Assembly (NCBI RefSeq): GCF_036507355.1
Contig: NZ_AP027877.1
Source: Escherichia coli
GTDB lineage: Bacteria > Pseudomonadota > Gammaproteobacteria > Enterobacterales > Enterobacteriaceae
Strand: one strand, 5' to 3'
Length of the DNA stretch: 64,000 nucleotides
Shown here: in pieces, positions 3,925 to 13,319 of the stretch
Layout: each line of letters starts with the position of its first letter
Position numbering within the stretch: the stretch's first letter is position 1
Position numbers and translations under genes: made by a program
The notes under the pieces: generated by a model
Seen by the model: only the letters and a program-made list of their open reading frames with translations
Database searches by the model: none
What the model was told of the DNA's origin: nothing

Positions 3925-4860
3925 ATGGCACTGCCAATTCTGTTAGATTGCGACCCAGGTCATGATGACGCTATCGCAATAGTTCTCGCCCTCGCCTCAC
4001 CAGAGCTTGATGTCAAAGCAATTACGTCTTCCGCCGGAAACCAGACACCAGAAAAAACCTTACGCAATGTTCTGCGTATGCTGACCTTGCTTAATCGCAC
4101 CGATATTCCGGTAGCCGGCGGCGCAGTAAAACCGTTAATACGTGAGTTGATTATCGCGGACAATGTGCACGGCGAAAGCGGTCTCGACGGCCCGGCATTA
4201 CCGGAACCGGCGTTCGCACCGCAAAACTGTACGGCCGTAGAGCTAATGGCGAAAACGCTGCGTGAAAGTGCGGAACCTGTCACGATTGTGTCTACCGGAC
4301 CGCAAACTAACGTTGCCTTGCTGCTCAATAGCCATCCGGAACTGCATAGCAAAATTGCCCGTATCGTGATTATGGGTGGCGCTATGGGGCTGGGTAACTG
4401 GACGCCTGCGGCTGAATTTAATATTTACGTTGACCCGGAAGCGGCAGAAATTGTCTTCCAGTCAGGGATCCCGGTGGTGATGGCCGGTCTGGATGTTACT
4501 CACAAAGCACAAATCCACGTTGAAGACACTGAGCGTTTCCGCGCGATTGGCAACCCTGTTTCAACCATTGTTGCCGAACTGCTGGATTTCTTCCTCGAAT
4601 ATCATAAAGACGAAAAATGGGGCTTTGTCGGCGCACCGCTGCATGACCCATGCACCATCGCCTGGCTGTTGAAACCGGAGTTGTTTACCACTGTTGAGCG
4701 CTGGGTTGGCGTGGAAACACAAGGGAAATATACCCAGGGGATGACGGTTGTTGATTATTATTATCTGACTGGCAATAAACCGAATGCCACTGTAATGGTC
4801 GATGTTGATCGTCAGGGCTTTGTTGATTTACTGGCTGATCGTCTGAAATTTTACGCTTAA
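3925..4860 (+). CDS. rihA: pyrimidine-specific ribonucleoside hydrolase
   Basis: ORF 3892..4860; start refined to [16 protein letters not shown] (nucleoside hydrolase DxDxxxDD motif); 311 aa. Confidence 0.9.
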
Positions 4861-4943
4861 CACACGTCATTGATTAAGATCACCACGCGTTACCTGGGTG
4901 GTCTTAATCTGTTTATCTCTTTTTCTTTCAAGATATAAATGCA

Positions 4944-6614
4944 ATGGATAATGCAGAACTCGCCATTGGTATCGATCTCGGTACTACCAATAGTTTAATT
5001 GCCGTCTGGAAAGACGGTGCCGCGCAATTAATTCCAAATAAGTTCGGTGAATATTTAACACCATCCATAATTAGCATGGATGAAAATAATCATATTTTAG
5101 TCGGAAAACCGGCTGTATCACGGCGTACTTCGCATCCGGATAAAACGGCAGCGTTATTTAAACGTGCAATGGGCAGTAATACCAACTGGCGGTTAGGCAG
5201 CGACACATTTAACGCGCCAGAACTGTCCTCTTTGGTATTACGCTCATTAAAAGAAGATGCCGAAGAATTTCTGCAACGTCCGATTAAAGATGTGGTGATC
5301 TCTGTTCCGGCTTATTTCAGCGATGAACAACGCAAGCATACCCGTTTAGCAGCGGAGTTAGCCGGTTTAAATGCAGTTCGCCTGATTAATGAGCCAACGG
5401 CAGCTGCGATGGCGTATGGCCTACATACCCAACAAAATACCCGTTCGCTGGTGTTTGATCTCGGTGGCGGCACGTTTGACGTTACGGTGCTTGAGTACGC
5501 CACGCCGGTGATTGAAGTTCACGCCTCCGCTGGCGACAACTTCCTCGGTGGCGAAGATTTTACCCATATGCTGGTCGATGAGGTTTTAAAACGCGCGGAT
5601 GTCGCCAGGACCACGCTTAACGAGAGTGAACTGGCAGCCTTGTATGCCTGTGTGGAAGCGGCAAAATGTAGCAATCAATCGCTAATGCACATTCGCTGGC
5701 AGTACCAGGATGAAACGCGGGAATGCGAATTTTACGAGAACGAACTGGAAGATTTGTGGTTGCCGCTGCTCAATCGCTTGCGAGTGCCGATTGAACAGGC
5801 GTTGCGCGATGCGCGTCTGAAGCCGAGTCAAATCGACAGTCTGGTGCTGGTTGGCGGCGCGTCACAAATGCCGCTGGTGCAGCGAATCGCCGTGCGTCTG
5901 TTTGGCAAATTACCGTATCAAAGTTACGATCCGAGCACCATTGTCGCGCTGGGCGCAGCAATCCAGGCAGCCTGCCGCTTACGCAGTGAAGATATTGAAG
6001 AAGTGATCCTCACTGATATTTGCCCTTACTCGTTGGGCGTTGAGGTTAACCGTCAGGGCGTTTCCGGCATTTTCTCGCCGATTATTGAACGAAACACCAC
6101 TGTGCCCGTGTCGCGTGTAGAAACTTATTCAACCATGCACCCGGAACAGGATTCAATTACGGTTAACGTCTATCAGGGAGAAAACCACAAAGTTAAAAAC
6201 AACATTCTGGTGGAATCCTTCGATGTGCCGTTGAAGAAAACCGGGGCTTATCAGTCGATTGATATTCGCTTTAGTTATGATATCAACGGGTTGCTTGAAG
6301 TTGACGTGCTTCTGGAAGACGGCAGCGTTAAGTCCAGAGTGATTAACCACAGCCCGGTAACATTGAGCGCGCAGCAGATTGAAGAGAGTCGGACGCGGTT
6401 ATCCGCATTGAAAATTTATCCGCGCGATATGCTCATCAACCGCACCTTTAAGGCCAAACTGGAAGAGTTGTGGGCGCGGGCGCTGGGTGACGAGCGAGAA
6501 GAGATTGGCCGGGTGATCACCGATTTTGATTCGGCGTTGCAGTCAAACGATATGGCCCGCGTCGATGAGGTCAGGCGGCGGGCGAGCGATTATTTAGCCA
6601 TTGAGATCCCATAA
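4944..6614 (+). CDS. hscC: Hsp70-family chaperone HscC (Hsc62)
   Basis: 556 aa; Hsp70 motifs IDLGTTNS and DLGGGTFD; AT-rich 5' end. Confidence 0.92.
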   Translation: MDNAELAIGIDLGTTNSLIAVWKDGAAQLIPNKFGEYLTPSIISMDENNHILVGKPAVSRRTSHPDKTAALFKRAMGSNTNWRLGSDTFNAPELSSLVLRSLKEDAEEFLQRPIKDVVISVPAYFSDEQRKHTRLAAELAGLNAVRLINEPTAAAMAYGLHTQQNTRSLVFDLGGGTFDVTVLEYATPVIEVHASAGDNFLGGEDFTHMLVDEVLKRADVARTTLNESELAALYACVEAAKCSNQSLMHIRWQYQDETRECEFYENELEDLWLPLLNRLRVPIEQALRDARLKPSQIDSLVLVGGASQMPLVQRIAVRLFGKLPYQSYDPSTIVALGAAIQAACRLRSEDIEEVILTDICPYSLGVEVNRQGVSGIFSPIIERNTTVPVSRVETYSTMHPEQDSITVNVYQGENHKVKNNILVESFDVPLKKTGAYQSIDIRFSYDINGLLEVDVLLEDGSVKSRVINHSPVTLSAQQIEESRTRLSALKIYPRDMLINRTFKAKLEELWARALGDEREEIGRVITDFDSALQSNDMARVDEVRRRASDYLAIEIP

Positions 6615-6620
6615 ACACGG

Positions 6621-6660
6621 CTGCCGGATGCGGCGTAAACGCTGCATCTGGCATCGGCGC
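6621..6660. repeat. REP-like palindromic element between convergent hscC and djlC
   Basis: gccggatgcggcgtaaacgc...ctggcatcggcgc resembles the REP consensus core. Confidence 0.45.
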
Positions 6661-6673
6661 AAAAAACACATCG

Positions 6674-8125
6674 TCAACTAAACAACATCGCGATTTTGCC
6701 GAGAGCATAACCTATCACCAGCACCGTTAAGCTGATTTTGATAATGCTGGTAATGCTCTGTGGTTTTTCATCCTCATCATTTTTTTCTTCATGGTTTTCA
6801 GGTGTTGGCTCATCGACATCTTCATCCTCCGGCTCGAGTTTCACTTTCGTCAACAGCATCCGGGTGATAATGGCCTCTAATGGATGAGCATCTCCACCTT
6901 CCAGCCTTGTATTAAGACGGGCCAGCATCTCTTGTTTCGGAAACGCTTCAAGTACTACCTGTTCCGCTACCCGATACAAATCCAGTAACGGTGAATCTTG
7001 CTCTGTCTCGCTACCGACCCTCGATTTCCACCACGCCCATGCTTTGCGTTTGAAGAATAACGACTCAATAAACGATTGACCTAACGGCGATAGTTTTCCG
7101 CTATGTAAAATTTCCGCCCATAACAGACGCGTCCGGGCGCTCTCACCAGGAACATATTTCAACGGTTTACCTTGCGCATCTACCATGCTCCGTGCTTCGA
7201 TAACCATCACTAATAACGCGAAATAATCCGGGCAATGTTGTGCGCTCCACTGCAACAACAAATTATCGGCTTGTGTAGATGGGTAACTTCCCCAGTACGC
7301 GCAGAGATCGGCAAGCAGGCTTTCCCCCTCGCCGCAGTACAAACGTTGTGCACACTGGTAATACCGGGCATCTTCGCTTTCTGGTTCTTCCGTTTGCCAC
7401 TGTTGGGCAACAGGAATGAGTTCCGCCATACCTGTTTGCACCGAGCTGTACCAGCGCAACAGTTTGCGATGCAACTTCGCATCATCAGGAATTAACCACG
7501 GACCTGCCAACGCCAAAAACGCAGTGACATAGTCAGGATGGTAACGACAGCAACGTTCCAGCGCGAAGTAATACTCAACAGTCTGGTTCTGCAACGCAAT
7601 GGGATATTCCAGAAGGCTAAGGAAATCGAAACAATCACCAGCCTGAATGGCCTCAAGAAAAGCCTCCCTTTCTTCCTCATCCATTCCTACGCTGTCATTA
7701 AACGAATGCCAGTTCAAACGCTCTGCCAGCAAAGAAGCACAATTTAATGAAAGATATCGCGCTTCTATAGCGATTGCACACAGCGGCCAGCGTAATTGAT
7801 CGACATCCTCCATGTTCCAGGTATTTAATTGCTGAATAAATTTCTGCCAGGCGGAAGGCTGAAAACGATCACTTTCTGAATCCAGTAATGTCCTGAATGC
7901 ACGAAGTATTTCATGTTCAGCGGCGGCATCTTTTTCTTCATCATCTGCTTCCTCGACAGGATTTACCGCCAGTCGCAGCGCCTCTTCATAGGCCTGGCGT
8001 AATGCTTTAAACCCCTGCGGATCGGTTTCGGGATGACATAACGGTAAGCGAGCAAAATAAGCCTGGCGGATAATGTCTATTTGCGTCGTGCTTTCAATTT
8101 CGAGGATTTGCCAACATGTTTTCAT
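6674..8125 (-). CDS. djlC: J-domain co-chaperone of HscC with C-terminal membrane anchor
   Basis: 483 aa; N-terminal J-like region with [10 protein letters not shown]-terminal hydrophobic tail [18 protein letters not shown]; start overlaps ybeU stop by 4 bp. Confidence 0.88.
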
Positions 8126-8829
8126 AGGTCGCTCACATCCTTAAGCGTTACCGGGCATTCAGGCTGGACAGTTAATGGTTGCCAGGGAAGCGTGGCATAG
8201 AAACGATCGCTTCCCGCTGCTAGCTCTTCGAACATATGACTCCTGGCGCTATCGTATTTGTACAGGGTTAGCGCCTCGCGTAGCGAAGTGTTGTCTTCGC
8301 ACTGAGAAGATTGCCAGTAGAGACGCCCTAGTGAATAGGCAGAAAAATAGTGCATCCAGCTGTGATAGTAATGGTGAGCTCGTACATAGACGCGCGATTG
8401 CAGCCATAAACTCTCGTCTTCCGTCAGCCACTTGTTGAGCACACCAACCCGTGATAAAAAACCCATCCGCACATAATCCCAGGCTTTGATTCCCCCTTCC
8501 CCACAACACATAGCGGTTTGGGCAACGAACTGGGTATAAATCAACCCTCTCTCCGAGCCACCAGCAATTAATGCTTTCCACTCTTCAGGGGAAGAGCGAT
8601 GCCATGTCAGATATAAGCCAGCTAAATCATTGGCATGACCATCATCAGTCATCTGATAAATAGTCTGAATTAAATCATCACGATTATTTATTCCCCAGGA
8701 TGATGAGAGATCGAATTCTTTTATCCCGGTATACATTTTTGGCGAGTCATGCGCGGGTTTGCAACCCTGATTAAGTATTTCCATGGGCGCAGAAAGCGCA
8801 AAAAGAAGATATTGTTCTTCCTTATTCAT
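8122..8829 (-). CDS. ybeU: DUF1266-like protein, function unknown
   Basis: 235 aa; paralogue of ybeR with shared motif [20 protein letters not shown]. Confidence 0.85.
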
Positions 8830-8930
8830 TTGTTAATAATCCCTTAAGTGCATTAACTGACTACTTTTTTATTATTGATGAGTATAAACTTGACGCTTTC
8901 AAAATAAAAAGAAAATCGAAACATTCACAC

Positions 8931-9485
8931 ATGAATAAAAAATTAATGTATATATTCGCAATTTTTATAGTTGCAGCAATTACCTGTATTAGCCAACCCA
9001 AGAAAACGACGTTGCGTGATAAAGCCATGGTGAATTATGCCTTTGATTATTTAAGCTCACCGGGCAGTCTTCCATTCACCACGGCAGCCACGGAGCTTTC
9101 CGCGATTCATGGTCACTCAACGTCGCAATATCGCCTTGGAGAATTTTATCTTCATGGTAGCGACGGTAAACCACTGGATTATACACAGGCGAGATACTGG
9201 TATGAGCAATCAGCGGAACAGGAAAATCCACGCGCGCAAAGTAAACTGGGGTGGATCTACCTCAAAGGTCTGGGGGTCAAACCCGACACCCGTAAAGCAA
9301 TTCTCTGGTATAAGGAAGCAGCTGAACAAGGGTATGCTCATGCTCAATATACTTTAGGTTTGATCTACAGAAATGGCTCAGGTATTAATGTTAACCATTA
9401 TGAATCTCAAAAATGGTTAAAACTGGCCGCCAAACAACATTACAAAAATGCGGAAAGATTACTTGCCGGGCTTCCCGCACATTAA
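8931..9485 (+). CDS. ybeT: Sel1-repeat (TPR-like) protein with N-terminal hydrophobic segment
   Basis: 184 aa; N-terminal [21 protein letters not shown]; Sel1-like repeats (AQ..LG..Y..G.GV); AT-rich coding sequence. Confidence 0.85.
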
Positions 9486-9494
9486 CGTCGACTG

Positions 9495-10922
9495 TCACCC
9501 GAACAGATGGAGTATTTTCCCTATCAAACCAGCAAAGATAAAAATATAGAAAATAATTTTAATGATGCCCAGACAGCCTGGCCCACCATCGTCAACGGGC
9601 ATTGGCTGCGGTTGCGGCTCCGGTTCAACAGTTTGCTTCTCGGTAAAATTCGCCGCCTGAATTAATAATCGACGAATAATTAATGCTTCCAGTGGACAAC
9701 GATTTTCTGCATCAAGACGGCTTACGATCGGCATTAATGATTCTTCTGTTGGTTGGCTGGCCTGCACTAATTGTTTGGCAACTAAATATAATGGCCATAA
9801 GGGATGTTCTGTATCACGCGTGAGTGAGATCCGCGGCTTACGTCCTTTGTGCAAAACCATCTCGACCAGTGAACGCCCCAGAGCAGAGAGTTTTTCATCG
9901 CTGAGTATTTCGTATAAATGAAAACGCGTACGGGCGCTGTCGCCGGGGATATAAAGTAGCGGTTTTCCCTGATCGTTAACCAGTTCACGAGCTTCAATCA
10001 TCATCACCACTAACGGGTAATAATCGACCCGATGCTGACGGCACCATTGCAATATTAAAGCATCCGCCTGGGTGGAGGGATACTCGCGCCAGTAGTCACA
10101 AAGTTCTGCCAGCAAGCTTTCGCCTTCTCCACAATAGACGCGTTGTGCGTATTCATAATAACGCGCATCTTCATTATCAGGTTCAGCTTCCCGCCACGAC
10201 CGGGCGTAATCCAGGAGTTCGGGAATTCCCAGGCGACCTGCGCTATACCAGCGGAGTAAATTTCTGTGCAGTTTTGCATCATCGGGGATAATCACTGCGC
10301 GATGTTGCGCTAAATACAATGTCAGCCATTCTGGATGCGATGACCAAATCCGAGCGAACATTTGGTAAAAATCGATGGTGTCATTTTGCACGGCAACGGG
10401 CAGATGCAGGATGGTCTGGAAGTTAAAAACATTCCCCTTCGCAATGGCATATAAAAAGGATTCCAGTTCTTCTTCGTCTATTTCCCCGACGTTTTCTTCC
10501 TGCAACCACCGCAATCTTTCTGCTAATAACACCACGCACTCGAAGGATAAATGGGCAGTGTTCATGGCTATTGTGCACAGCGACCAGCGTAATTCATCAA
10601 TCTCTTCCATCGAGCAATAATTTAATTGCTGAATGAATCGCTGCCAGGCGGAGGGCAGAAAACGTTCGCTATCAGAGGCAAGTAACGCACGAAAGGCGAG
10701 CAGAATTTCATGTTCTGCTACCTCATATTCTTCTGGTTGCCAAACAGATTTAGCAGGCGACTGCGCAATCCGTAGCGCCTCCTCATACGCCTGACGAAGT
10801 TGTTTAAAACCCTGCGGATCGGTTTCTGGATGAAAGGACGGTAACAGCGCCAGATAAGCGCGGCGGATAATATCGACGTCAGTCGTTTCCTCTATGTTGA
10901 GGATCTTCCAGCAATTTTTCAT
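9495..10922 (-). CDS. djlB: J-domain protein with C-terminal membrane anchor, paralogue of djlC
   Basis: 475 aa; N-terminus [23 protein letters not shown]...[10 protein letters not shown]-terminal hydrophobic tail; start overlaps ybeR stop by 4 bp. Confidence 0.88.
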
Positions 10923-11626
10923 AGGTCGCTCATATCCTTAAGCGTTTCCGGGCATGTGGGGTAGTCAGCCAGTGGTTGCCAGGGTAAGGTCGCGTAATAT
11001 GCATCGTCACTGGCAAATAATTGATAAAACATATCATTGCCGGAATCGTCGTATTCTTTACGCGCTAAGAATTCACGTAATAAAGGCAGATTATCATCTT
11101 CGGGAGACTGCCAATATTGCCGACCAAAGGTATAACCGGCAAAGTATTGCCGCCAGTTACTATAATAACGTAGAGCCCGTAGATGAATACGCGACTGGAT
11201 CCATAGACTTTCTTCTTCACTCAACCAGTTATTAAGTACGCCCATTCGACTTAAAAAACCCATCCGGACATAATCCCATGCTTTAATTCCTCCCTCACCA
11301 CAGCATTCGGCTGTGCTGGCGACAAATTGCGCATAAGCCTGACCTTGCTCATTTAATTCAGCAAGATAGTCACGCCATTCACATGGAGAATAACGAAACC
11401 AGCGGTGATAAAACCCTGCCAACCGAGCGGCATGACCGTTATCGATCATTCGGTGAATTGTGCGCAGCAGGTCATCACGGTCATCAATTCCCCAGGAGGA
11501 AGAAAGGTCAAAAAAGCATGTACCTAAATACATTTTGGGGGATGAATGCGAAGGTAAACAGCATTCATTGCGTATTTCCATCGGAGTGGAAAGTGCAAAC
11601 AATATTTTTTGCGACTCCATGTCCAT
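10919..11626 (-). CDS. ybeR: DUF1266-like protein, function unknown, paralogue of ybeU
   Basis: 235 aa; same [20 protein letters not shown] motif as ybeU. Confidence 0.85.
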
Positions 11627-11783
11627 ATAATTTATCCTTAAACATTCATTTAATGAATGTAAACTACATTAGGAGGCTCATTTATTTATACTTTTCTGAC
11701 ACAACATAATACGCATAAAATAAGACTTACGCAAAAACGGAACACATAAAAATATAATATGTTTTATCTGCAACCATAAGGAA

Positions 11784-12767
11784 ATGATAATGATTTTTAC
11801 GTCAAGTTGCTGCGATAATTTGTCAATAGATGAGATTATCGAACGTGCTGAACAAGGCGATAGTGAGGCTCAATATATTGTTGGGTTTTATTATAATCGC
11901 GATAGCGCAATTGACTCTCCGGACGACGAAAAGGCCTTTTACTGGCTGAAGCTGGCCGCTGAGCAAGGTCATTGTGAAGCACAGTATTCCTTAGGGCAAA
12001 AGTATACCGAGGATAAAAGCCGTCATAAAGATAATGAGCAAGCCATCTTCTGGCTGAAAAAAGCTGCCCTACAAGGCCATACTTTCGCTTCCAACGCCCT
12101 TGGCTGGATACTGGATCGTGGAGAAGACCCCAACTATAAAGAAGCGGTTGCCTGGTATCAGATAGCCGCGGAGAGCGGAATGTCTTATGCGCAAAATAAT
12201 CTTGGGTGGATGTACAGAAATGGCAACGGAGTCGCACAAGACTATACGCTGGCATTTTTCTGGTACAAACAAGCTGCATTACAAGGCCATAGTGACGCGC
12301 AAAACAATCTGGCCGATCTTTATGAAGACGGAAAAGGCGTTGCTCAAAACGAGACACTCGCCGCATTCTGGTATTTGAAAAGCGCACAGCAGGGTAATCG
12401 GCATGCTCAGTTTCAAATTGCATGGGATTATAACGCTGGCGAAGGGGTGGACCAGGACTATAAGCAAGCGATGTACTGGTATCTGAAGGCTGCCGCTCAG
12501 GGGAGCGTCGGCGCTTACGTCAACATCGGTTATATGTATAAACACGGACAAGGCGTTGAGAAAGATTATCAGGCTGCCTTTGAATGGTTTACGAAAGCCG
12601 CTGAATGCAATGACGCCACTGCCTGGTATAACCTGGCCATTATGTATCACTACGGAGAAGGAAGACCTGTCGATCTCCGACAGGCTCTCGACCTGTATCG
12701 TAAAGTTCAGTCATCCGGAACCAGAGATGTCAGTCAGGAAATTCGTGAGACTGAAGATTTACTGTAG
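11784..12767 (+). CDS. ybeQ: Sel1-repeat (TPR-like) protein
   Basis: 327 aa; at least seven Sel1-like repeats (AQ..LG..Y..G.GV..D...A..W); Cys-rich N-terminus. Confidence 0.85.
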   Translation: MIMIFTSSCCDNLSIDEIIERAEQGDSEAQYIVGFYYNRDSAIDSPDDEKAFYWLKLAAEQGHCEAQYSLGQKYTEDKSRHKDNEQAIFWLKKAALQGHTFASNALGWILDRGEDPNYKEAVAWYQIAAESGMSYAQNNLGWMYRNGNGVAQDYTLAFFWYKQAALQGHSDAQNNLADLYEDGKGVAQNETLAAFWYLKSAQQGNRHAQFQIAWDYNAGEGVDQDYKQAMYWYLKAAAQGSVGAYVNIGYMYKHGQGVEKDYQAAFEWFTKAAECNDATAWYNLAIMYHYGEGRPVDLRQALDLYRKVQSSGTRDVSQEIRETEDLL

Positions 12768-12771
12768 AGAT

Positions 12772-12812
12772 AAAAACAAGGGCCGGGGAATTTCATTCGG
12801 CCCATATTCTCT
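12772..12812. terminator. hairpin between convergent ybeQ and ybeL
   Basis: gggccggggaatttcattcggccc stem-loop flanked by A/T runs. Confidence 0.4.
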
Positions 12813-12836
12813 TTATTGCTGTGCGAAATCAGACTA

Positions 12837-13319
12837 TTACGGCTCAAACGGGCGTCTCTGGAACTGGTCATGACCACATTTCGGGCATAGCGTCAGCACT
12901 TCCGGTGTGTAGATCGGGAGATGGAAGTGACATTTCTCGCAGACCAGATTTCCCAGCCCGACCACTTCTCCGCTGTGATAAACCCCATGATGATTGAGGT
13001 CCTGGAAAACTTCGCGCCATTCAAGCTGCGTTTTATCGGTGATGTCTGCCAGCTCCTGCCACAAGCTTTCTTTAATCACCCGCATAAAGACGCTGTCAGA
13101 TTCTTCTTTCAGGCTCTCTTCATAGCTCATGGCGAACTCTTCCAGGTCACGTCTGACAGCTCGCGTCAGCTCATCGACCTCGGTTCGCGTTAACTCCCCT
13201 GTTTTTATTACGCGCTCGCGCGCCTGTTCCACCAGTGCGTCGATATCACGTTCGCCATTGCGCAGGCGTTCGCTCAGTGACGCGACCAGTTCACGGTAAT
13301 ATTGAGCAACCTTGTTCAT
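12837..13319 (-). CDS. ybeL: DUF1451 zinc-ribbon protein
   Basis: 160 aa; C-terminal CxxC...CxxC (CEKCHF...CPKCGH). Confidence 0.85.
   Translation of the reverse strand: MNKVAQYYRELVASLSERLRNGERDIDALVEQARERVIKTGELTRTEVDELTRAVRRDLEEFAMSYEESLKEESDSVFMRVIKESLWQELADITDKTQLEWREVFQDLNHHGVYHSGEVVGLGNLVCEKCHFHLPIYTPEVLTLCPKCGHDQFQRRPFEP

Follow-up and report, generated by a model that had tools for sequence, protein, structure and literature searches.

DUF1266 proteins YbeU and YbeR of Escherichia coli as probable facultative partners of the HscC-DjlB/DjlC chaperone system

What do the small DUF1266 proteins YbeU and YbeR do beside the genes of HscC, the third Hsp70 of Escherichia coli? In the 64,000-nucleotide stretch of E. 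coli DNA analysed here (contig NZ_AP027877.1 of assembly GCF_036507355.1; hereafter the window), the ends of ybeU and ybeR overlap the starts of djlC and djlB, which encode J-domain co-chaperones. An earlier note on this DNA had called the two proteins obligate partners of the adjacent J-proteins and had pointed to a CC-GEGG motif common to both. We consider it probable, at about 0.6, that YbeU and YbeR form a facultative, stoichiometrically co-made module on the cargo side of the HscC-DjlB/C system, either as an adaptor or as a dedicated client. In E. coli these genes and overlaps are already annotated. What goes beyond the literature that we searched is a deeply conserved triad of DUF1266 protein, J-protein and HscC with a preserved gene junction, a family signature that is separable from the cysteine pair, and the facultative place of DUF1266 in these loci. 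That literature yielded no discussion of the function of YbeU, YbeR or DUF1266 and no mention of a link between cytoplasmic single-domain DUF1266 proteins and HscC/DjlB-C loci; reviews only guess at unidentified membrane clients of HscC (PMC8215388).

The hscC region holds seven intact genes at 4944-12767, between rihA and ybeL/leuS, in the order hscC (+), djlC (-), ybeU (-), ybeT (+), djlB (-), ybeR (-) and ybeQ (+). The features that bear on the question are as follows.

4944..6614, plus strand: hscC, a specialised Hsp70 of 556 residues, convergent with djlC (open reading frame; RefSeq annotation hscC)
6674..8125, minus strand: djlC, a J-domain co-chaperone of 483 residues with an N-terminal J domain carrying HPE, a helical TPR-like middle and a C-terminal tail-anchor transmembrane segment
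8122..8829, minus strand: ybeU, a DUF1266 protein of 235 residues, predicted soluble and all-alpha (Pfam PF06889, AlphaFold2 model, no transmembrane segment)
8122..8125, minus strand: ATGA stop/start overlap of ybeU and djlC, read directly
8138..8142, minus strand: AAGGA Shine-Dalgarno-like element within the 3' end of ybeU, 12 nucleotides upstream of the djlC ATG
8449..8508, minus strand: YbeU residues 108-127, a 20-residue block whose last 15 residues are the DUF1266 signature helix (G113, W117, D118, R121, L125, R127)
9495..10922, minus strand: djlB, a J-domain co-chaperone of 475 residues, paralogue of djlC, with an HPE motif and a C-terminal transmembrane segment
10919..11626, minus strand: ybeR, a DUF1266 protein of 235 residues, paralogue of ybeU
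10919..10922, minus strand: ATGA stop/start overlap of ybeR and djlB, read directly
10935..10939, minus strand: AAGGA Shine-Dalgarno-like element within the 3' end of ybeR, 12 nucleotides upstream of the djlB ATG
11246..11305, minus strand: YbeR residues 108-127, the 20-residue block identical to that of YbeU

The two stop/start overlaps that the earlier note had seen are both real: on the minus strand the letters ...GAC CTA TGA AAA ACA... lay the TGA stop of ybeU over the djlC ATG (ATGA, 8125..8122), and ybeR meets djlB in another ATGA at 10919-10922. A four-nucleotide overlap is the commonest type of junction in bacterial operons and is unremarkable by itself. Scanning one genome per species with a YbeU-family alignment gave 77 loci from Escherichia, Klebsiella, Rahnella, Erwinia, Pectobacterium, Brenneria, Marinobacter and Pseudomonas (about 55 species), in which we called open reading frames and classed them by phmmer against the seven window proteins. 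All 76 DUF1266-J pairs found in these eight gammaproteobacterial genera have a stop/start overlap (ATGA in 71, TAATG in 5), even with DUF1266 proteins only 35-40% identical to YbeU, and almost all 77 loci keep the gene order DUF1266 (+), J-protein (+), HscC (-). It is the conservation of the overlap, not one overlap, that exceeds chance. In most loci a purine-rich element (AGGA, GGAG or GAGG) begins 12-16 nucleotides upstream of the J start, the E. coli spacer being 12 nucleotides; this spacing is longer than optimal and so fits, without proving, a dependence on re-initiation. In E. coli, ybeU-djlC is listed as one transcription unit of the Crl regulon (PMC6469107).

The association extends to distant members of the family. 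Six single-domain DUF1266 proteins at 22-25% identity all lie in clusters of HSP70 and DnaJ/TPR/DjlB_C_2nd genes (6/6). Two of these loci have the E. coli layout, in which the DUF1266 gene leads into the J gene by a 4-nucleotide overlap or a 3-nucleotide gap and the Hsp70 gene is convergent; the other four run co-directionally from Hsp70 through a soluble, TPR-rich J-protein to DUF1266, with 4-nucleotide overlaps or gaps of 1-42 nucleotides, and their Hsp70s are 40-42% identical to HscC along its whole length and of the same size. Marinobacter has the order DUF1266, J-protein, Hsp70. Since the flanking genes vary between loci, the triad is a self-contained module, recognised by a DUF1266 gene that tightly adjoins a DjlB/C-type J gene and by an HscC-type Hsp70 in the same cluster. 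Sampling was also done in reverse, from the side of the HscC-type Hsp70, in five Firmicute/Negativicute loci in which DUF1266 was sought within 6 kb on either side. A DjlB_C_2nd-type J/TPR protein directly follows the Hsp70 in all five, and a DUF1266 gene is present in those of Brevibacillus and Paenibacillus, so that with two of five DUF1266 is not a universal component of HscC/DjlB-C systems. The relation is thus asymmetric: the sampled cytoplasmic single-domain DUF1266 proteins always occur with HscC and a J-protein, and HscC with its J-protein does not need DUF1266.

Within E. coli the two modules rise and fall as units. Among 5,426 complete genomes, hscC is present at a coverage of at least 80% in 4376, djlC in 4371, ybeU in 4257, ybeR in 3803 and djlB in 3708; hscC-djlC-ybeU is absent from about 19% of the genomes, and djlB-ybeR is absent or disrupted in about 12% more. 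Strains with locus losses were examined individually (NZ_CP124424.1, L085, and NZ_CP063467.1, L086). One strain has the whole locus between rihA and ybeL replaced by IS1, and another has a clean deletion that removes djlB, ybeR and the 5' part of ybeQ together. The GC (guanine plus cytosine) content of the locus genes is 43-50%, compared with 51-53% in the flanking rihA, ybeL and leuS, and falls to 26% in the divergent intergenic regions between ybeU and ybeT (8830-8930) and between ybeR and ybeQ (11627-11783). This low GC content fits a horizontal origin, and it also fits the finding that a DUF1266 gene is derepressed roughly 300-fold when enteroaggregative E. coli 042 carries an hns mutation and is grown at 25 °C (PMC7582179).

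The paralogous genes make it possible to ask which part of the protein is under selection. YbeU and YbeR are both 235 residues long and 60% identical without gaps, and DjlC and DjlB are 53% identical; by sequence, the DUF1266 and J genes were duplicated together, as one unit, in Escherichia. The earlier note was right that both proteins share a 20-residue block, which is identical at residues 108-127. Both proteins are rich in Trp and Tyr (W 3.8%, Y 6.4-6.8%); YbeU has 5 cysteines and YbeR has 7. Gene conversion as the source of the identical block was rejected, synonymous differences at degenerate codons being as frequent there (9/18) as gene-wide (71/125), which argues that the block is kept by purifying selection on the protein. 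We followed the motif through alignments of 35 diverse family members and of 83 paired proteins. Only 9 of 83 relatives, all from Escherichia and Klebsiella, have a cysteine at position 108, and 75 of 83 have one at position 109; C109 is clade-specific (Enterobacterales, Pseudomonas), being absent from Marinobacter, from Vibrio-like relatives and from every member with the Hsp70-J-DUF1266 layout. We therefore reject the cysteine pair as a family hallmark. The conserved part reads GGIxAWDxxRxxFLxR, with G113, W117, D118, R121, F124, L125 and R127 on a long helix (113-131), and further conserved residues are W45, H65, E139, W158, G168, W172 and W216. W45, H65, G113, W117, D118, R121, R127, E139, W158, G168 and W172 are all present in YbeU and YbeR. 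The signature helix is thus kept in homologues and the cysteine pair is not; the "CC-GEGG" of the earlier note, put forward there as a shared motif, is to judge by these alignments half lineage-specific decoration and half real family signature.

YbeU matches Pfam DUF1266 (PF06889) with an E-value of 9.1e-45 over residues 41-216 (model positions 2-175 of 175), so that the profile search named in the earlier note makes it, with its paralogue YbeR, a full-length member of a family without assigned function. No other Pfam or NCBIfam family, CbpM included, was matched by YbeU or YbeR, PHROGs gave no match, and the PDB gave no sequence or profile match for YbeU. In PADLOC-DB 2.0 there were no matches for YbeU, YbeR, DjlB, DjlC or HscC, and only marginal repeat matches for the Sel1 proteins. 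No transmembrane segment or signal peptide is predicted in YbeU. Its AlphaFold2 model, built on a 35-sequence alignment, is all-alpha, with a predicted local distance difference test score (pLDDT) of 91.8 and a predicted template modelling score (pTM) of 0.90; Foldseek against AFDB50 returned 153 significant matches, of which the best 50 are all DUF1266 proteins or, in E. coli/Salmonella, fragments and mis-calls of such proteins, suggesting a fold without a characterised relative. A secreted or lipoprotein branch of the family, with 43 multidomain members (P0171, P0182, P0193, P0222 and 39 others), keeps the GIKAWDxFRM helix, and the signature residues listed above are invariant or nearly so in it. 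The partner domains are Cu_amine_oxidN1, SLH, TPR, LRR (LRR_5) and Peptidase_M54. All four inspected multidomain proteins with an intact N-terminus have a signal peptide or lipobox, from which the DUF1266 domain appears to work outside the cytoplasm as well. Apparent fusions of DUF1266 to a J domain in AFDB, which might have served as Rosetta stones, are mis-called or contaminant E. coli sequence: the 627-residue 'Hsc56 co-chaperone' A0A2X3M2D5 appears to merge ybeU and djlC, and the 'DNAJC13' of Trichuris trichiura (A0A077ZGN2), like a 'Paenibacillus' contig (L005), has 94-98% identity to the ybeU of E. coli, suggesting contamination. Fragments of YbeU (P0071, P0083) are misnamed 'putative tRNA ligase' in databases.

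The partners on the other side of the junction are better known. HscC ATPase is stimulated by DjlC, whereas DnaJ, CbpA and HscB do not stimulate it, according to the account of Kluck et al. (2002) in PMC8215388; both DjlB and DjlC have a tail anchor, with DjlC at the inner membrane, and HscC reportedly requires no exchange factor (PMC8215388). The NCBIfam DnaK and HscA models match HscC below their cut-offs. The N-terminal J domain of DjlC and DjlB carries HPE where HPD is usual; both also have a helical region with weak TPR-like structural matches and a C-terminal transmembrane segment, and related bacterial J-proteins carry TPR and DjlB_C_2nd Pfam matches. In genera other than Escherichia and Klebsiella the J-protein has about 890 residues, of which the first ~315 are homologous to DjlC (32% identity, HPE kept), and it ends in a DUF805 membrane domain; C-terminal transmembrane segments were found in 79 of 83 J-proteins. 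The Hsp70-activating HPD motif varies among these J-proteins: E. coli and Pseudomonas have HPE, Marinobacter has H-P-P-E, loci L080 and L088 have NPE, and L087 has the canonical HPD.

The way in which these parts might work together can be put as follows. Ribosomes that end ybeU would re-initiate at the djlC ATG, whose one Shine-Dalgarno-like element lies as far as 12 nucleotides upstream, and likewise for ybeR and djlB, so that YbeU and DjlC would be made in a fixed ratio and would assemble as they are made. At the inner membrane YbeU would then dock on DjlC through the cytosolic, helical and TPR-like region of the latter, and the pair would be the cargo-side half of a machine in which the DjlC J domain, with its HPE, then fires the HscC ATPase. 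As a specificity adaptor, DUF1266 would present a ligand or client; as a dedicated client, its own state would be controlled by HscC. The conserved polar and aromatic residues are also kept in the secreted DUF1266 proteins, which lack the chaperones, so the W/D/R/R/E/H set most likely forms a ligand-binding or catalytic pocket of the domain's own and not a J interface. Every sampled cytoplasmic DUF1266 occurs with HscC and a J-protein and the reverse does not hold, which argues for a facultative chaperone-dependent module over a core co-chaperone.

We also asked whether structure prediction brings the two proteins together, using a paired alignment of 23 cognate DUF1266 and J-proteins joined by a 25-residue Gly/Ser linker to fold YbeU-linker-DjlC(1-450) with AlphaFold2. 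The fused model, a single one with no non-cognate control and with neither predicted aligned error nor coordinates, has a pLDDT of 82.2 and a pTM of 0.75, and it is of low confidence only in the artificial linker, in the acidic linker that follows the J domain and at the C-terminus. For two independently tumbling bodies of these sizes a pTM of about 0.55 is expected by our rough estimate. The difference suggests a defined YbeU-DjlC assembly, for which we regard the model as suggestive only. An EEVD-like docking of the YbeU C-terminal tail (LPW...P.SL...) into the TPR-like domain is unsupported, the tail pLDDT being no higher in the fusion, and this tail may owe part of its conservation instead to the J gene, whose ribosome-binding site and start are embedded there. 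DSSP bridge residues (YbeU 191; DjlC 315, 321 and 329) were abandoned as interface markers, their pairing partners not being assignable.

A number of observations weigh against so close a partnership. Three of the five reverse-sampled HscC loci, those of Clostridium tyrobutyricum, Pseudobacteroides cellulosolvens and Pelosinus propionicus, have no DUF1266 within 6 kb on either side (with a hidden Markov model check on two, L089 and L090), so the chaperone pair evidently works without it. The 43 multidomain members include no fusion of DUF1266 to a J domain. The related loci are mostly from Pseudomonas (~55/77) and are not independent samples. In the fused model, a forced linkage of this kind can over-compact helical proteins, and the pLDDT of YbeU is no higher than in the single chain, with residues 191-210 dropping from ~78 to 67. 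Within E. coli, about 114 genomes retain djlC at a coverage of at least 80% with ybeU disrupted, and truncated YbeU variants are common, many of them 193 residues long (P0025-P0035 and others); together these suggest recurrent inactivation of ybeU alone, which with H-NS silencing may mean weak selection in E. coli. Of the earlier claim of obligate partners, then, the idea of a dedicated partnership is supported, with junction and Hsp70 neighbour conserved, and the word obligate is too strong, given the three HscC loci without DUF1266 and the existence of secreted DUF1266 proteins, which an Hsp70 cannot reach.

How far other explanations account for the same facts differs from case to case. YbeU could be a regulator like CbpM that binds the DjlC J domain or the region next to it and switches co-chaperone activity off or on, with no role in cargo. 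It is small and soluble, its gene shares an operon and a conserved tight junction with that of a specialised J-protein, CbpA-CbpM offers a precedent (PMC8215388), and a regulator could be as facultative in HscC loci as DUF1266 is. We nevertheless consider this unlikely, as YbeU resembles no known family in sequence or fold, CbpM included, and its most conserved residues are common to secreted homologues without a J-protein, which points to an intrinsic pocket rather than a J-binding surface. That there is no physical partnership at all, the genes being merely co-transcribed in a compact H-NS-silenced accessory island with overlaps produced by ordinary operon compaction, is quite unlikely in our estimate. 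Such overlaps are very common, the low GC content of the locus and its 26% intergenic regions, the derepression in the hns mutant and the absence of the locus from about 19% of E. coli genomes all suit an island of this kind; compaction does not, however, predict an adjacency that persists at 22-25% identity, through changes of gene order and in unrelated neighbourhoods, nor a DUF1266-J pair that was duplicated as a unit.

The cysteines suggest another role, in which C108-C109 and other cysteines bind Cd2+ or sense oxidation and recruit HscC. Sensitivity of hscC and djlB djlC mutants to Cd2+ (Kluck 2002, as summarised in PMC8215388) agrees with a thiol or metal sensor, as do the 75 of 83 relatives that keep C109 and the five and seven cysteines of the two proteins. 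We consider this role very unlikely, given how few relatives have C108 and that both cysteines are absent from Marinobacter, Vibrio-like and Hsp70-J-DUF1266 members that still keep the triad; from the alignments, the pair would be at most a lineage-specific add-on. A core co-chaperone, in the form of the missing nucleotide-exchange or release factor of HscC, is highly improbable: DUF1266 does come third among the genes of an Hsp70/J cluster, a position that in DnaK systems belongs functionally to GrpE, but HscC reportedly dispenses with such a factor (PMC8215388), three of the five sampled HscC loci lack DUF1266, and the domain has no likeness to GrpE or to another fold and has secreted homologues. 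A bolder reading, rather unlikely in our judgement, would make DUF1266 a chaperone-gated effector and no passive adaptor: its invariant Trp/Asp/Arg/Glu/His pocket would be an enzyme or ligand-binding site for an envelope or membrane component, a setting that the secreted Cu_amine_oxidN1, SLH and lipoprotein fusions would share, and in the cytoplasm the membrane-tethered J-protein and HscC would hold, activate or reset it. If this were true, the horizontally mobile, H-NS-silenced triad would make up a stress or defence module, complete in itself and of a new type, with an Hsp70 as its switch; the literature searched gave no paper tying HscC to phage defence.

Returning to the adaptor or dedicated client, the system would by analogy probably be a specialised Hsp70/J pair that has a dedicated third partner, as HscA-HscB-IscU or CbpA-CbpM do. 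As in HscA-HscB-IscU, where IscU is a dedicated client from the gene cluster of the chaperones, a specialised Hsp70 without exchange factor would work with a class C J-protein that binds one particular partner by a domain other than its J domain; this partner carries a conserved functional site of its own and is also found where the chaperones are absent. Unlike IscU, DUF1266 has no homology to IscU, no known chemistry and no identified Hsp70-recognition motif equivalent to LPPVK, and here the J-protein is membrane-anchored and TPR-like and the genes overlap, with predicted translational coupling. CbpA-CbpM, a J-protein with a specific modulator from its own operon, differs in sequence and fold and in gene order, ybeU lying upstream of its J gene and cbpM downstream, and the sharing of the conserved YbeU residues with secreted homologues argues against a role purely in J-domain binding. 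Eukaryotic TPR J-proteins (DNAJC7/Tpr2, DNAJC3/p58IPK) likewise have, besides the J domain, a TPR-like solenoid by which a partner or client is held for Hsp70, whereas the bacterial ones have HPE/NPE variants, pair with HscC and have DUF1266 as a separate subunit. DUF1266 is the most concrete candidate so far for what HscC works on or with, encoded and probably made together with the J-protein across Gammaproteobacteria and some Firmicutes. An uncharacterised Pfam family thereby gains a biological context, and the focus for mutagenesis moves from the lineage-specific cysteine pair to the conserved W117/D118/R121/R127/E139/H65 site.

The two remaining genes of the region encode Sel1-repeat proteins.

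8931..9485, plus strand: ybeT, a Sel1/TPR-like repeat protein of 184 residues, divergent from ybeU (Sel1-type repeat matches)
11784..12767, plus strand: ybeQ, a Sel1 repeat protein of 327 residues, divergent from ybeR

YbeT has a hydrophobic, signal-like N-terminal segment (residues 5-23) and YbeQ has none. Among the related loci scanned, Sel1-repeat genes divergent from each DUF1266-J module occur in Escherichia only; TPR repeats in other lineages are part of the J-protein itself. A promoter and terminator scan of 4700-13000 gave nothing exceeding the shuffled background. The gap between djlC and hscC is 59 bp in E. coli (6615-6673), and in about 43 Pseudomonas loci (e.g. L013, L024, L054) the stop codons of the J gene and hscC overlap convergently, by 4 nucleotides in 32 and by 7 in 11, which allows no terminator between them and implies 3' ends that overlap in antisense. 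Among the HscC loci without DUF1266, that of Pelosinus has a TonB_C and TPR protein as its third gene product, that of C. tyrobutyricum an extra DjlB_C_2nd/TPR protein and that of P. cellulosolvens a FIST-domain protein, and the locus of the last adjoins Thg1, RNA-ligase and TatD genes. Beyond ybeQ in Escherichia sp. MOD1-EC7003 (L001, 1648-3003), two more DjlB/C-like open reading frame fragments (E-values 4e-20 and 8e-15) may be the remnant of a third module.

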